From the sequence record PQ438391.1: 64,000 nt of DNA; one strand, given 5' to 3'. This document shows positions 22,328 through 53,321 of this stretch, one piece after another. The notes under the pieces were generated by a model that saw only the letters and a list, made by a program, of their open reading frames with translations, was not told the origin of the DNA and did no database searches. The DNA comes from Escherichia phage vB_Eco_T-01. Both the position numbers and the translations under genes were made by a program. Positions within the stretch are counted from its first letter, which is position 1; each line of letters begins with the position of its first letter.

Positions 22328-22410
22328 CATACAAGTAATATAAATCTATACTTAGGAAAAATAGATGATTCTAGGTCCTGTAAATTCATTAAAAATTTTT
22401 TCACAAAACT

Positions 22411-22440
22411 GTTTACAAGACTGTTCTTCCATGGTACTAT
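22411..22440 (+). promoter_or_regulatory. T4-type early promoter (repeated promoter-leader cassette)
   Basis: GTTTACAAGACTGTTCTTCCATGGTACTAT; near-identical copy at 50109. Confidence 0.6.
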
Positions 22441-22477
22441 ACAACTATCAACTACTGATACAGATTTGGAGAATAAA

Positions 22478-22714
22478 ATGAAAATTGTTATGGGATGCTT
22501 AGCAGTTTGTTTAGTTGCATTAGCAGCAGTTCCATTTGTTAGTGTTGAAAATGATACTCAACCTGTGATTGAATCTAGCACCGTTATTCACACTAATGGT
22601 AAAATATCAGTTAAAATTGATGATAATCTTCATGTGAATACAAATGGATCTTTAGGTGTGCAAATGGGTAATACCTGCATAAGCACTACTGGAGTAATTA
22701 CTACTTGCATTTGA
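22478..22714 (+). CDS. hypothetical secreted protein
   Basis: 78 aa with N-terminal signal peptide; begins just after an early promoter-leader cassette. Confidence 0.55.
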   Translation: MKIVMGCLAVCLVALAAVPFVSVENDTQPVIESSTVIHTNGKISVKIDDNLHVNTNGSLGVQMGNTCISTTGVITTCI

Positions 22715-22724
22715 GGAAATTATT

Positions 22725-23105
22725 ATGAAAATCGCTATTTTGGTTATTGCATTAGGTCTTACTGGTTGTGTAGCTCAAGGACCGGTAGTAAATCAGTCTG
22801 ATGTAGGAAAAATTGTAAACTGTTCAAGCAAATTTTATAATCCTAATGTCAAGTGTTATAAAGAAGCTCCAAAGCAAACAGTAGAACAAATGCAGGCGAA
22901 TTTTGACGAAGCTATTCGTCCAGATAAATCTGCTCAAGCATATCGTAATTCGGATGTAATTACACGCGAAGAAAAAATTGAAAACTACTGCGCCGAGCTT
23001 TGGGCTAATTGGGCTAATAATTACCAATGGCGTACTGGTAAAAATGCTCCGATGGAGTATGTAGTGAATTCTTATAATTCATGTGTAAAAAATTTGACTA
23101 AGTGA
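22725..23105 (+). CDS. hypothetical lipoprotein
   Basis: 126 aa; signal peptide with lipobox LTGC. Confidence 0.6.
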   Translation: MKIAILVIALGLTGCVAQGPVVNQSDVGKIVNCSSKFYNPNVKCYKEAPKQTVEQMQANFDEAIRPDKSAQAYRNSDVITREEKIENYCAELWANWANNYQWRTGKNAPMEYVVNSYNSCVKNLTK

Positions 23106-23112
23106 GGAAAAC

Positions 23113-23364
23113 ATGGAAACTTTAGTAGCAGGTTCAATTTTTATGGTTTTAGTTTCAGGTGTGTTGGCTATTATTATATACATGCTTCCATGGTTTATCG
23201 CCTTGATGCGTGGGTCAAAATCGACAGTAGGAATCTTTTTCACATCTTTACTGTTTAACTGGTCAATTATTGGTTGGTTTATTACATTTATTTGGTCAAT
23301 TGCGGGTGAAACTAAAAAGTCTGCACAACCAAATCAGGTAATTATCATCAGAGAGAAGGAATGA
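23113..23364 (+). CDS. imm: superinfection immunity membrane protein Imm
   Basis: 83-aa ORF with two hydrophobic helices; recognised as T4 Imm. Confidence 0.85.
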   Translation: METLVAGSIFMVLVSGVLAIIIYMLPWFIALMRGSKSTVGIFFTSLLFNWSIIGWFITFIWSIAGETKKSAQPNQVIIIREKE

Positions 23365-23510
23365 AAAGCAAAATTATAACAGTGTTGCTTTTAATCTTGA
23401 TGATTATAATAAGTATATACTATAGTGTAACGGTTCCTCTTATGATTCCAACTATTATTTTAGGTTGGGGTTTATTACTGTTACAAGTTAAATATGAATG
23501 TATCAATTGA
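23361..23510 (+). CDS. hypothetical small membrane protein
   Basis: 49-aa hydrophobic ORF overlapping imm stop. Confidence 0.4.
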   Translation: MKSKIITVLLLILMIIISIYYSVTVPLMIPTIILGWGLLLLQVKYECIN

Positions 23511-23517
23511 GGTTTAA

Positions 23518-24258
23518 ATGATTAGTGACTCTATGACAGTTGAAGAAATCCGTCTTCATTTGGGGCTTGCATTAAAAGAAAAAGATTTCGTAGTTGATAA
23601 AACTGGCGTTAAAACTATTGAAATTATTGGCGCATCATTTGTAGCAGATGAACCGTTTATTTTTGGCGCTCTTAATGATGAATACATTCAGCGTGAACTT
23701 GAATGGTATAAATCTAAAAGCTTGTTTGTTAAAGATATTCCAGGTGAAACGCCGAAGATTTGGCAACAAGTAGCATCTTCTAAAGGCGAAATTAACTCAA
23801 ATTATGGCTGGGCTATTTGGTCAGAAGATAACTATGCCCAGTATGATATGTGTTTAGCTGAACTTGGTCAAAATCCTGATTCTCGACGTGGTATCATGAT
23901 TTATACTCGTCCATCCATGCAATTTGACTACAATAAAGATGGTATGTCAGATTTCATGTGTACTAATACAGTACAGTACCTGATTCGTGATAAGAAAGTC
24001 AATGCAGTAGTAAGCATGCGCTCAAATGACGTGGTCTTCGGATTCCGTAATGATTATGCATGGCAAAAATACGTATTAGATAAATTAGTATCTGATTTGA
24101 ATGCAGGCGATTCAACTCGTCAGTATAAAGCAGGTTCTATTATATGGAATGTCGGAAGTCTTCATGTATATTCTCGTCATTTTTACTTGGTTGATCATTG
24201 GTGGAATACTGGCGAAACTCATATTGTGAAAAAAGACTATAAAGGTGAGTGGAAATGA
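23518..24258 (+). CDS. 42: dCMP hydroxymethylase gp42
   Basis: 246-aa ORF; thymidylate-synthase-like fold; recognised as T4 gp42. Confidence 0.95.
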   Translation: MISDSMTVEEIRLHLGLALKEKDFVVDKTGVKTIEIIGASFVADEPFIFGALNDEYIQRELEWYKSKSLFVKDIPGETPKIWQQVASSKGEINSNYGWAIWSEDNYAQYDMCLAELGQNPDSRRGIMIYTRPSMQFDYNKDGMSDFMCTNTVQYLIRDKKVNAVVSMRSNDVVFGFRNDYAWQKYVLDKLVSDLNAGDSTRQYKAGSIIWNVGSLHVYSRHFYLVDHWWNTGETHIVKKDYKGEWK

Positions 24259-51335: not shown

Positions 51336-51415
51336 TGAGTAATTTCCACAACGAACACGTGATGCAGTTCTATCGTAACAATCTTAAAACCAAAGGCGTC
51401 TTCGGACGCCAGTGA
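51335..51415 (+). CDS. stp: Stp peptide (modulator of host restriction / PrrC anticodon nuclease)
   Basis: 26-aa [34 protein letters not shown]-coupled to ndd; below ORF-track cutoff. Confidence 0.85.
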
Positions 51416-51422
51416 GGAAAAT

Positions 51423-51581
51423 ATGAATATCGCAAAATTATTAGGAGTTATTTCATTTATTTGTTGGATAGTAGCATGTGTTTTAACTATCTGTATCGAT
51501 GCTAGCAGTGTGTTTTCACAAGCTTTAGCCCAGGGTATGTGTGCATATTTAACATTTGTGTTATTATCTACTAATGATTAA
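51423..51581 (+). CDS. ac: small membrane protein, probable Ac (acridine sensitivity)
   Basis: 52-aa hydrophobic ORF; GAGGAAAAT RBS; size and position as T4 ac. Confidence 0.55.
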   Translation: MNIAKLLGVISFICWIVACVLTICIDASSVFSQALAQGMCAYLTFVLLSTND

Positions 51582-51718
51582 GAAAATCTTGGGCTATTCA
51601 TTAGCCCTTGCTACTTTATTGGTAGCACTATATTATGGAGTAATGTTCGGATTAATTCAAGTCGTGCTTTTCATTTCTGATGTTATTATGGCACTACATT
51701 CACTAGTATGGTAAATTT

Positions 51719-53047
51719 ATGCAACTGAATAATCGCGATTTAAAAAGTATCATTGATAATGAAGCATTGGCTTATGCTATGTACACGGTTGAAAATCGTG
51801 CCATTCCAAATATGATTGACGGATTTAAGCCAGTTCAACGATTTGTTATTGCTCGAGCTCTTGATTTGGCACGAGGAAATAAAGATAAGTTTCACAAACT
51901 TGCTTCTATTGCAGGTGGTGTAGCGGACCTTGGGTATCATCATGGTGAAAACTCTGCACAAGATGCGGGGGCTTTGATGGCTAACACTTGGAATAATAAT
52001 TTTCCTCTGTTAGATGGTCAAGGAAACTTTGGTTCTCGTACCGTCCAAAAAGCAGCAGCAAGTCGTTATATTTTTGCTCGTGTAAGTAAAAATTTCTATA
52101 ACGTATATAAAGATACTGAGTATGCTCCGGTACATCAAGATAAAGAACACATTCCGCCTGCTTTCTATTTGCCTATTATTCCTACTGTTCTTCTTAATGG
52201 CGTTTCCGGTATTGCAACTGGTTATGCAACTTACATTCTTCCTCATAGCGTTTCTTCTGTCAAGAAAGCTGTATTACAAGCTCTTCAAGGAAAGAAAGTA
52301 ACTAAACCGAAGGTAGAATTCCCAGAATTTCGTGGTGAAGTCGTTGAAATTGATGGGCAATATGAAATTCGTGGAACATATAAGTTTACTTCACGAACTC
52401 AAATGCATATCACTGAGATTCCGTATAAGTATGATCGTGAAACTTATGTGAGTAAAATCTTAGACCCACTTGAAGATAAAGGCTTCATTACATGGGATGA
52501 TGCTTGTGGTGAGCACGGCTTCGGCTTTAAAGTTAAATTCCGTAAAGAATATTCTTTGAGCGATAATGAAGAAGAACGCCATGCAAAAATTATGAAAGAC
52601 TTCGGGTTGATTGAGCGTCGTTCTCAGAATATTACCGTCATTAATGAGAAAGGAAAACTGCAAGTTTACGATAACGTAGTTGATTTAATTAAAGACTTTG
52701 TTGAAGTTCGTAAAACTTATGTCCAAAAACGAATTGATAACAAAATCAAAGAAACTGAGTCAGCTTTTCGTTTAGCCTTTGCCAAGGCACATTTCATTAA
52801 GAAAGTAATTTCAGGTGAAATTGTTGTTCAAGGTAAAACTCGTAAAGAACTGACCGAAGAACTTTCGAAAATCGACATGTATTCTTCTTATGTTGATAAA
52901 CTAGTTGGAATGAATATTTTTCATATGACTTCTGATGAAGCAAAGAAACTTGCTGAAGAAGCTAAAGCTAAAAAAGAAGAAAACGAATATTGGAAAACTA
53001 CTGATGTAGTTACAGAATACACCAAAGATTTAGAGGAAATCAAATGA
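51719..53047 (+). CDS. 52: DNA topoisomerase II medium subunit gp52 (GyrA-like)
   Basis: 442-aa ORF; recognised as T4 gp52. Confidence 0.97.
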   Translation: MQLNNRDLKSIIDNEALAYAMYTVENRAIPNMIDGFKPVQRFVIARALDLARGNKDKFHKLASIAGGVADLGYHHGENSAQDAGALMANTWNNNFPLLDGQGNFGSRTVQKAAASRYIFARVSKNFYNVYKDTEYAPVHQDKEHIPPAFYLPIIPTVLLNGVSGIATGYATYILPHSVSSVKKAVLQALQGKKVTKPKVEFPEFRGEVVEIDGQYEIRGTYKFTSRTQMHITEIPYKYDRETYVSKILDPLEDKGFITWDDACGEHGFGFKVKFRKEYSLSDNEEERHAKIMKDFGLIERRSQNITVINEKGKLQVYDNVVDLIKDFVEVRKTYVQKRIDNKIKETESAFRLAFAKAHFIKKVISGEIVVQGKTRKELTEELSKIDMYSSYVDKLVGMNIFHMTSDEAKKLAEEAKAKKEENEYWKTTDVVTEYTKDLEEIK

Positions 53048-53193
53048 GTCCATTCGTAGGTATTACAAGCGCTGCGTTAGTATCTGGTGCCATTTTACTG
53101 GCGGGTTTAGGCGTTGTTCCAGCCGTAGCAGGAGGTCTTCTTGCGTTCGGAATTCAACGTGTTATCACGATAGTTATCGCGTTTGAGCAGTAA
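53044..53193 (+). CDS. hypothetical small membrane protein
   Basis: 49-aa hydrophobic ORF, ATGA-coupled to gene 52, followed by terminator. Confidence 0.4.
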   Translation: MSPFVGITSAALVSGAILLAGLGVVPAVAGGLLAFGIQRVITIVIAFEQ

Positions 53194-53198
53194 TTTTA

Positions 53199-53226
53199 GG
53201 GAGAGCCGAGGCTCTCCCTTTTTTAT
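53199..53226 (+). terminator. intrinsic terminator after gene 52 region
   Basis: GGGAGAGCC-GA-GGCTCTCCC followed by TTTTTT. Confidence 0.7.
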
Positions 53227-53250
53227 TTCAAAAATTTTTTTCACAAAACG

Positions 53251-53280
53251 GTTTACAACCAAAGCATACTGTGGTACTAT
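53251..53280 (+). promoter_or_regulatory. T4-type early promoter upstream of motA
   Basis: GTTTAC ... GGTACTATACAACTATCAAATACTGATACAG. Confidence 0.6.
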
Positions 53281-53321
53281 ACAACTATCAAATACTGATA
53301 CAGAATTACGGAGATTAGAAA

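Follow-up and report, generated by a model that had tools for sequence, protein, structure and literature searches.

The 64,000-nucleotide (nt) stretch of Escherichia phage vB_Eco_T-01 analysed here (PQ438391.1; the window) derives from a Tequatrovirus, a T4-like coliphage, and is ~96% identical to many isolates. Dispersed over it are five related repeats, named below by the positions of their -35 elements (22411, 41631, 49603, 50109 and 53251), which are very probably early promoter/leader cassettes of T4 type, in other words the T-even form of the promoter/stem-loop (PeSL) regulatory cassettes known from the literature. Their likeness extends beyond the promoter consensus into the transcribed leader, their mosaic make-up, as far as sequence comparison can tell, points to common descent and exchange, and the gene slot directly behind most of them varies among relatives. 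These features are real but ordinary for a T-even phage. An earlier sequence-only reading of the same DNA is partly supported: it was right in outline and wrong on the role of the UUCG hairpins, on the junctions in T4, and on the novelty and mobility of the genes carried behind the cassettes (here called cargo).

Copies of the cassette and the extent of their identity

All five copies flagged by the sequence-only reading are present. GGTACTATNNNNNTATCAA matches exactly at 22433, 41653, 49625, 50131 and 53273; with up to two mismatches it occurs 7 times, against 0.6 in shuffled sequences, and the leader motif ATCAACTACKGA, with up to one mismatch, has 8 matches where 0.59 are expected. A repeat search of the window joined the cassettes into one 75-nt family (D1), to which a sequence at 7739 belongs as a weaker sixth member. 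Between 22411 and 50109, described earlier as near-identical over about 40 nt, 40 of 45 positions from the -35 hexamer to ACTAC are indeed equal, and the two copies have an exact 21-nt tract in common, TGTTTACAAGACTGTTCTTCC.

Scanning the window for early promoters (GTTTAC-N18-TAnnAT with an A/T-rich upstream region) gave ~15 sites; every one is on the + strand, a short way upstream of an open reading frame (ORF). Seven of these (22411, 28633, 39938, 41631, 49603, 50109 and 53251) form a sub-family characterized by the -10 hexamer TACTAT and a leader with (A)ACTAC(T/G)GA, a class set up after the data had been seen; a truncated eighth member lies at 4-24. The earlier count of "at least five" holds for the five and is an undercount by the members at 28633 and 39938 and the truncated one. 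Over all 15 promoters the -35 and TGn/-10 blocks are 87-100% identical. Over the 15 nt that follow the -10 hexamer, compared in fixed register, identity averages 81% for the five flagged cassettes and only 33% for the eight other early promoters of the window. Cassette identity therefore reaches past the hexamers, the feared limitation to the -35 and -10 elements is ruled out, and leader identity marks the sub-family and is not something that the promoter class requires in general.

Promoter anatomy and leaders

The cassettes consist, in order, of an A/T-rich block resembling an UP element (AAAAATTTTTTCACAAAAC), GTTTAC, a spacer of 18 nt with TGG at its end, and TACTAT, and so contain the elements by which early promoters are recognized (GTTTAC, a spacer of 17 or 18 nt, TGn, TAnnAT and an A/T-rich UP region). 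GTTTAC is found in four of the five flagged cassettes; the copy at 41631 has ATATAC, as does its T4 ortholog. The T4 early consensus is described as GTTTAC at -36 to -31, an UP element, TGn and 'additional regions of consensus' (PMC1524935; PMC2988021). In T4, the same cassettes stand on the early strand directly 5′ of the early genes imm.1, cef, ndd.6, ndd.4 and motA. Anatomy and orthologous sites together bear out the description of the repeats as early promoters with extended conserved leaders. By their composition they would be very strong sigma-70 promoters; transcription is predicted to start ~7 nt after the -10 hexamer, which would give leaders of 20-45 nt.

The leaders begin with AUCAACUAC and end in a Shine-Dalgarno sequence that doubles as a putative RegB/S1 cleavage site (GGAGAAUAAAA or GGAGG). 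Their tails take two forms, tail I being CUGAUACAGA…GGAGAAUAAAAUG and tail II CGGAGGAACA(A/G)AAAAUG. The sequence GGAGAATAAAA equals the RegB/S1 site reported as optimal in T4 (consensus GGAGRAYARAA), and motA is named as a good substrate (PMC1702504; also PMC3014915). This optimal site occurs exactly at 22468 and 41694, the motA leader carries the RegB-like site GGAGATTAGAA with one mismatch to the consensus, and in the tail II leaders (49603, 50109) the match is limited to GGAGG. RegB would thus be expected to cleave at the leaders of ORF78, ORF89, ORF87 and the ndd.4 homologue. Folded from the predicted start, the leaders show no more structure than shuffles do (z = +0.8 to +1.5 for four, -0.5 for motA) and therefore suit both ribosome loading and RegB, which needs single-stranded RNA. 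A 5′-terminal mRNA-stabilising hairpin in tail I leaders (UAUCA-ACUAC-UGAUA) was considered and rejected; at -0.6 kcal/mol it is no better than in shuffles. A strong promoter joined to a RegB site at the Shine-Dalgarno sequence would give the first gene strong expression right after infection, followed by RegB shut-off.

Hairpins inside the cassettes

Three members of the sub-family, 50109, 39938 and 41631, contain a hairpin (Table 1) that places the -10 hexamer in or beside its loop and the predicted +1 downstream of its 5′ arm. The stem-loop at 53251 is the upstream terminator at 53198 and not an internal hairpin. Over 21 cassette types, the spacer pairs with its own leader at -7.2 kcal/mol and with other leaders at -3.7 kcal/mol, a difference that none of 20,000 permutations reached.

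It is possible, though doubtful, that a considerable share of the early promoters of T-even phages (39938, 41631 and 50109 at least, probably also 28130 and 41043) are built into hairpins that control translation of the first gene. Only transcripts reading through from upstream would fold the internal hairpin; at 39938 and 50109, where the 3′ arm holds the Shine-Dalgarno sequence, such RNA would hide both this sequence and the RegB site. Transcripts started at the cassette would lack the 5′ arm and stay open; these alone would undergo translation and, afterwards, RegB cleavage. Pairing of GUGGU, from the extended -10 motif, with ACUAC would explain the conserved leader motif ATCAACTAC. T4 genes e, soc, 49 and I-TevI follow a comparable logic, in which the Shine-Dalgarno sequence is masked in read-through RNA, while RNA started at a promoter within the hairpin can be translated (PMC3014915). 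If the proposal is true, the logic of e, soc and I-TevI would be carried from late to early promoters and the stem-loop of PeSLs would gain a defined job. The -10-in-loop hairpins at early promoters thus offer a modest new angle, in that expression of the first gene may depend on its own promoter.

The same placement of the -10 hexamer, in the loop of a spacer-leader hairpin, is seen at two early promoters that do not belong to the TACTAT sub-family, those at 41043-41117 (before motB) and 28130-28190 (before the ORF at 28189). Their cognate pairing gains are -15.0 and -11.3 kcal/mol, respectively, in each case the best of the 21 leaders tried.

Variable genes in the slot behind the cassettes

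Gene content was compared through chained alignments to four comparators, T4, e11/2, T2 and ph0021. The early region differs from them by 18 indel or replacement events, a number that leaves out those ascribed to homing endonucleases or introns by the classification used here. The first-gene slot is polymorphic at 22411, 39938, 41631, 49603 and 53251, that is, at five of the seven sub-family promoters and none of the eight other early promoters (Fisher p = 0.007), an enrichment that is suggestive only, because the promoter class was defined after seeing the data. A uniform model with ~105 gene slots gives a binomial p = 0.005. Variable content was thus found behind four of the five flagged cassettes, as the sequence-only reading had expected. 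Three of the indels relative to T4, those of ORF78, ORF89 and ORF87, start exactly at the start codon behind a flagged cassette.

The denB slot exists in at least four states: ORF87 (window, ph0021 and a Dhakavirus), ORF68 with ORF87 (Nami), ORF68 with a scar (T2), and the scar only (T4). The denB-ndd.4 interval has several alleles across 711 database records; ORF87 was found at full length in 41 records. ORF87 alleles are 52-55% identical in amino acid (aa) sequence between phages whose neighbouring DNA is close to that of the window, ph0021 among them. At the imm slot three states occur, namely ORF78, the unrelated ORF83 (T2) and nothing (T4). Leader tail and cargo switch as a pair at both slots: ORF87 comes with tail II and ORF68 with tail I in the denB slot, ORF78 with tail I and ORF83 with tail II in the imm slot. 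The boundary of exchange is thus placed within the conserved core. A duplicate of the motA cassette is found in ph0021, where two promoters with the common 23-nt leader CTATCAAATAAATGAACTGAAAC flank a 75-aa ORF (ORF75); this tandem pair is the substrate predicted by the PeSL mini-circle model.

The cargo itself is less exotic than had been anticipated. All cargo ORFs fall into existing PHROG families of unknown function, with no Pfam matches, and occur in 41 to 320 database phages; given these families and this wide occurrence, they are not novel. The genes behind the cassettes had also been described as signal-peptide or membrane ORFs, which holds for those at 22478 and 50167 and not for the one at 49660, the soluble ORF87. 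As separate observations, a Dhakavirus carries two tandem ORF87 paralogs, and a 141-kb phage (DCP80, H55) has a stretch 67% identical to ORF87 DNA. At 48983-49108, a 330-base pair (bp) ORF between denB.1 and denB, present in e11/2 and ph0021, has suffered a ~195-bp deletion; behind the UUCG hairpin at 48950, the first gene is its remnant of 41 codons, which overlaps the denB start.

Do the cassettes promote exchange?

Another explanation makes the cassettes bystanders that promote no exchange: operon starts would be where dispensable small genes gather, and microhomology deletion would remove them. This is unlikely overall; several observations nonetheless agree with it or weigh against an active role of the cassettes. 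The three T4 differences are all deletions in T4, with junctions in microhomologies of 4-9 nt at start-codon contexts (ATGAAAAT at imm.1, AAAA(T) in ORF89 and AAATG at ORF68/ORF87), not crossovers between cassettes. In T2, the deletion 40027-41032 begins a little way into motB.2 and stops shortly before the following promoter, so that equivalent cassette positions are not joined. The exact tracts common to cassette pairs are 19-24 nt at most, which is short for efficient homologous recombination in T4. No hopping of cargo between slots was seen: ORF68 (129 records) and ORF75 (168 records) occupy positions consistent with a single slot, a judgement based on those of the listed records that begin at the T4 zero point, and a tblastn search of the cargo ORFs against the window and the loci retrieved from other phages gave no second location. 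The enrichment test draws on four comparators, 18 events and an after-the-fact promoter class, and pooling all 15 promoters leaves no significant enrichment (p = 0.10). The stem-loop half of the PeSL comparison is incomplete as well. Only three of the five flagged cassettes have one, with no convincing stem-loop at 22411 (z = +0.8) or 49603 (z = -0.3); ortholog substitutions in the hairpins are limited to G-U/G-C/A-U interchanges, with some end pairs broken, which is weak support, and no double compensatory changes were seen in the hairpin orthologs compared.

T4 retains traces of these losses as mini-ORF scars behind strong early promoters, MKIAEIEL upstream of ndd.6 (from ORF87) and MENSLKVLILF upstream of cef (a frame-shifted ORF89 remnant); the ORF89 deletion of ph0021 has the same breakpoints as that of T4. 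The T4 ndd.6 leader (…AAAATGAAAATCGCT|GAGATTGAACTATGA) was also considered as a chimera of the imm.1 cassette and the end of ORF87, which would be a footprint of recombination between cassettes. This was rejected: the leader is a plain deletion scar, because the ORF87 allele of Nami ends in …NEMKIAEIEL.

What the bystander explanation does not accommodate is the switching of leader tail with cargo at the denB and imm slots, with its boundary inside the core, and the duplicated ph0021 cassette around ORF75; PeSL mini-circles have moreover been shown experimentally in RB49/phi1 (PMC2839356). For the view of the repeats as sites of recombination and shuffling, tail-cargo co-switching and the ph0021 tandem are indirect signs; it fails for the T4 junctions and the fixed-slot cargo. 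In the preferred reading, the cassettes would be short conserved islands at operon starts that serve as a left homology arm for allelic replacement and are occasionally duplicated. Small dispensable genes would be gained and lost in the slot directly downstream, many of the losses being simple microhomology deletions at AAAATGAAA-type start contexts.

Probable common descent and mosaic make-up

The cassettes have a common core of 20-25 nt, GTGGTACTATACAACTATCAACTAC, and are mosaics of parts. In the spacer, a region with no known constraint, 17 of 18 positions are equal between 22411 and 50109. This spacer (a) is joined to tail I at 22411 and to tail II at 50109 and in the imm-slot cassette of T2; another spacer (c) is joined to tail II at 49603 in the window, e11/2 and ph0021, and to tail I in T4, T2 and Nami. 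All four combinations therefore exist, which requires at least one exchange inside the shared core. The complete cassette of spacer a and tail II stands in IMG/VR relatives before three unrelated genes, ndd.4, an 83-aa ORF and a 175-aa ORF. A scan of IMG/VR with an exact 23-nt core found 12 loci from 5 contigs only, too few for a population survey. T2 shows the changes CCTCTG in common in both of its spacer a copies; gene conversion was considered, and pairing with tail II may explain them instead.

Likeness past the consensus would then derive from common descent and from exchange of modules (spacer, initial transcribed segment and leader tail). Pure convergence, by which the copies are alike only through one long early consensus and have neither shared ancestry nor a role in recombination, is very unlikely. 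T4 early promoters do have an unusually long consensus (PMC2988021), the promoter blocks hardly vary within the whole class, and orthologous cassettes retain a locus-specific spacer even in another genus (Dhakavirus). Yet convergence leaves unexplained why eight other, presumably equally functional promoters lack the leader identity, why a spacer with no known constraint is nearly the same at 22411 and 50109, how one whole cassette came to precede three unrelated genes, why every spacer/tail combination is found, and how the ph0021 cassette was duplicated around an extra ORF. Judged from these sequences, general promoter requirements do not account for the likeness of the sub-family. That cassette and ORF form an autonomous element, integron-cassette-like or resembling a miniature inverted-repeat transposable element and moved between slots by site-specific recombination, is scarcely credible, for although the same cassette precedes different genes, the ph0021 arrangement is tandem and the PeSL papers leave site-specific recombination open (PMC4122927), no recombinase is associated with the cassettes, which have no terminal inverted repeats or target-site duplications, each cargo examined is consistent with one slot (129 and 168 records) and the junctions vary.

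UUCG hairpins and terminators

The hairpin AGGGCTTCGGCCCT, reported earlier as an identical recurring element, is found exactly at 8627, 12265, 17576, 48723 and 48951, with none in shuffled sequences, and a sixth exact copy lies on the - strand at 57544. The window holds 12 C(UUCG)G hairpins with stems of 5-9 bp, intergenic and just after stop codons; 11 belong to the early region (+ strand) and one to the late region (- strand), so all of them read UUCG in the mRNA sense. T2 has exact copies at loci whose spacings correspond to those of the window. Such hairpins have long been known from T4 intercistronic regions, where they were reportedly described by Tuerk and colleagues in 1988; the likeness covers the C-UUCG-G loop, the G+C-rich stem and the sense position between genes, and no differences were seen.

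They had been grouped with the cassettes but are not coupled to them, the nearest lying 650 nt from any of the five. The hairpins were likewise rejected as the stem-loop half of the cassettes: a strong hairpin stands directly upstream of only 2 of the 15 promoters (32633 and 53251), and the only UUCG hairpin in such a position, at 32597, precedes the promoter at 32633, which is not a flagged cassette. A T-run directly follows the hairpins at 53198, 48950 and 32597, and most other UUCG hairpins have none; most are therefore probably not simple intrinsic terminators. The AGGGCUUCGGCCCU elements are a separate class, very stable C(UUCG)G hairpins that most likely act as barriers at mRNA 3′ ends or as attenuators. 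The MotA-box-like sequence and TATAAT that follow the hairpin at 12262 (Table 1) would be a likely middle promoter. Two of the hairpins (12258-12310 and 43435-43490) have a further 31 nt in common (87% identical), running into TTTAGCTTTAT with TATAAT ~12 nt on; by analogy with the 'PmSL' of phage nt-1, this looks like a composite of hairpin and MotA-box middle promoter. An Rfam search of the whole window gave no family at its gathering score.

Table 1. Positions of cassettes, the cargo genes behind them and hairpins in the window
Feature	Position	Strand	Context	Parts and properties
Truncated member	4..24	+	Promoter cut by window start; complete cassette before same gene (begins MTRNEYIK) in IMG/VR relatives	Leader tail CTACTGAGGAGATTAATATG; repeat family D10
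Cassette 22411	22385..22480	+	Before ORF78 (78 aa, signal peptide), then imm.1, imm; same cassette in T4 before imm.1	UP ~22386-22410; -35 GTTTAC 22411-22416; TGG and -10 TACTAT 22432-22440; inferred +1 ~22447; RegB/Shine-Dalgarno site GGAGAATAAAA 22468-22478; ATG 22478; leader unstructured
Extra member 28633	28607..28693	+	Before sp (spackle)	-35 28633; -10 TACTAT 28657-28662; leader AAACTACTGAGGAG; ATG 28691; repeat family D10
Extra member 39938	39912..39997	+	Before motB.2	-35 39938; -10 39962-39967; ATG 39995
Cassette 41631	41605..41706	+	Before ORF89 (89 aa), then cef; same cassette in T4	Degenerate -35 ATATAC 41631-41636; -10 TACTAT 41655-41660; RegB/Shine-Dalgarno site GGAGAATAAAA 41694-41704; ATG 41704
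Cassette 49603	49577..49662	+	Between denB and ORF87 (87 aa, soluble); T4 ortholog before ndd.6 remnant	-35 49603-49608; -10 49627-49632; leader ATCAACTACGGAGGAACAAAA (tail II); ATG 49660
Cassette 50109	50083..50169	+	Before ndd.4 homologue (37 aa, membrane)	-35 50109-50114; -10 50133-50138; ATG 50167
motA cassette 53251	53198..53324	+	Before motA	Terminator hairpin 53198-53219, then T-run, UP element; -35 53251-53256; -10 53275-53280; GGAGATTAGAA 53311-53321; ATG 53322 (MotA)
Hairpin of 39938	39945-39987	+	-10 hexamer in loop	17 bp; Shine-Dalgarno GAGGA in 3′ arm; -23.8 kcal/mol; z = -4.6
Hairpin of 41631	41637-41656 with 41660-41679	+	-10 hexamer inside folded element	20-nt arms; -20.2 kcal/mol; z = -5.3
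Hairpin of 50109	50119-50133 with 50149-50163	+	-10 hexamer in loop	Spacer CUGUUCUUCCGUGGU with leader ACUACGGAGGAACAG; 15 pairs including Shine-Dalgarno; -22.8 kcal/mol; z = -4.9
ORF78	22478..22714	+	First gene after 22411 cassette	Absent from T4; unrelated 83-aa ORF in T2; 320 records; phrog_4189
ORF89	41704..41973	+	First gene after 41631 cassette	Deletion scar only in T4 and ph0021; 260 records; phrog_3720
ORF87	49660..49923	+	First gene after 49603 cassette	T4 keeps last 8 codons (MKIAEIEL); phrog_2390
C(UUCG)G hairpin	8626..8641	+	Intercistronic	Exact AGGGCTTCGGCCCT copy
C(UUCG)G hairpin	12262..12281	+	After a-gt	Then MotA-box-like sequence and TATAAT; repeat family D2
C(UUCG)G hairpin	17576..17589	+	After gene 45	
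C(UUCG)G hairpin	48721..48738	+	Begins at rIIB stop codon	
C(UUCG)G hairpin	48950..48965	+	After denB.1	Then TTTTGTTTT; annotated terminator in phage e11/2
C(UUCG)G hairpin	57542..57559	-	Late strand, between two - strand ORFs, tail-fibre gene 37/38 region	

Genomic setting and neighbouring features

Megablast searches with positions 48000-54000 and 20000-44000 of the window matched hundreds of Tequatrovirus genomes over the full length at 95-97% identity. In the alignment to T4, the + strand is the complement of the T4 map and runs from ~T4 48 kb via position 0 to ~154 kb; it is therefore the strand of early transcription. T4 gene order is kept along it (nrdC.x … 43 … imm … uvsX … dda … motB … cef … 39 … rIIA, rIIB, denB, ndd, 52, motA, arn, asiA), followed by tail-fibre genes on the opposite strand.

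Some neighbouring loci depart from T4. The large topoisomerase subunit (43510-45327) is a single 605-aa ORF, as in T2, and the ~1.1 kb that lies between gene 39 and gene 60 in T4 (with mobA, 60.1 and the bypass region of gene 60) is absent at 44927-44979. Between 47.1 and 47, a 207-aa ORF (12441-13064) that is not present in T4, e11/2, T2 or ph0021 has a weak GIY-YIG match (E = 3e-4, just under the Pfam cut-off) and is probably a free-standing homing endonuclease. Gene 61.2, at 28984-29971, encodes full-length AdfA (anti-DarT factor A, Pfam PF23813, E = 1.7e-136) and is followed in tandem by a 108-aa ORF matching the C-terminal half of AdfA only. The two have in common a 49-nt direct repeat (29566-29614 and 29923-29971; 98% identical) that spans their 3′ ends and the next ribosome-binding site. 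Only the long form is found in T4 and e11/2, and only the short form in T2 and ph0021; both AdfA alleles appear to have been joined in this phage through recombination in the common 3′ end.

For annotation, the analysis marks ~15 early transcription units in the window. ORF78, ORF89 and ORF87 (78, 89 and 87 aa) sit in the most changeable slots, which by their promoters would also be the most strongly expressed, and early accessory genes of this kind are reasonable candidates for host-takeover or anti-defence functions.

Comparison with known systems

Early promoters, RegB sites, UUCG hairpins and PeSL shuffling at ndd have all been published, and the present findings therefore carry little weight as discovery. 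The mapped early promoters of T4 (Hinton 2010, PMC2988021; Nolan et al. 2006, PMC1524935) have the same UP element, GTTTAC at -36 to -31, TGn and -10 hexamer, stand on the early strand upstream of the orthologs of imm.1, cef, ndd.4, motA, sp and motB.2, and are nearly identical in sequence. There is no substantial difference, the TACTAT sub-family with its ATCAACTAC leader being a subset of the class. The RegB/S1 sites of T4 (Durand et al. 2006, PMC1702504) are likewise 11-nt single-stranded GGAGRAYARAA elements that overlap early-gene Shine-Dalgarno sequences; the optimal GGAGAAUAAAA is exact in two leaders here and motA is a documented substrate in T4, whereas the tail II sites (GGAGGAACA) stray from the A-rich consensus.

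The hairpins at 50109 (ndd.4) and 39938 (motB.2) resemble in layout the control of T4 e, soc, 49 and I-TevI (PMC3014915). The known cases concern late promoters and delayed expression, whereas at 50109 and 39938 an early promoter is embedded and the function is a prediction.

PeSLs were defined by Arbiol et al. (2010), who showed promoter activity, terminator activity and mini-circles in RB49/phi1 (PMC2839356), and were extended to T4/PST by Comeau et al. (2014), with the consensus TTTACW-N17-TAYWAT and exchange at ndd.4/.5 as the worked example (PMC4122927). In RB49/phi1, sub-classes are distinguished by a stem-loop between the boxes or one that overlaps the -10 box (PMC2839356). The cassettes described here differ in that two of the five flagged copies have no convincing stem-loop, the losses that could be traced are microhomology deletions, and no cargo occurs at more than one slot. 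The T4/PST paper draws stem-loops upstream, whereas the clearest examples here have the -10 hexamer in the loop, as in RB49/phi1. The likeness is nevertheless extensive. Both are repeated composites of an A/T-rich region, a sigma-70-type early promoter, a Shine-Dalgarno sequence and a start codon; the T4/PST consensus fits all cassettes of the window; stem-loops upstream of the promoter or overlapping the -10 box occur here too; and both adjoin small variable ORFs. The match to the published T4-type promoter/stem-loop idea proposed by the sequence-only reading is thus sound, down to the same locus (PMC2839356, PMC4122927): the ndd.4/.5 example is the site of cassettes 49603 and 50109, and the finding was therefore already known.

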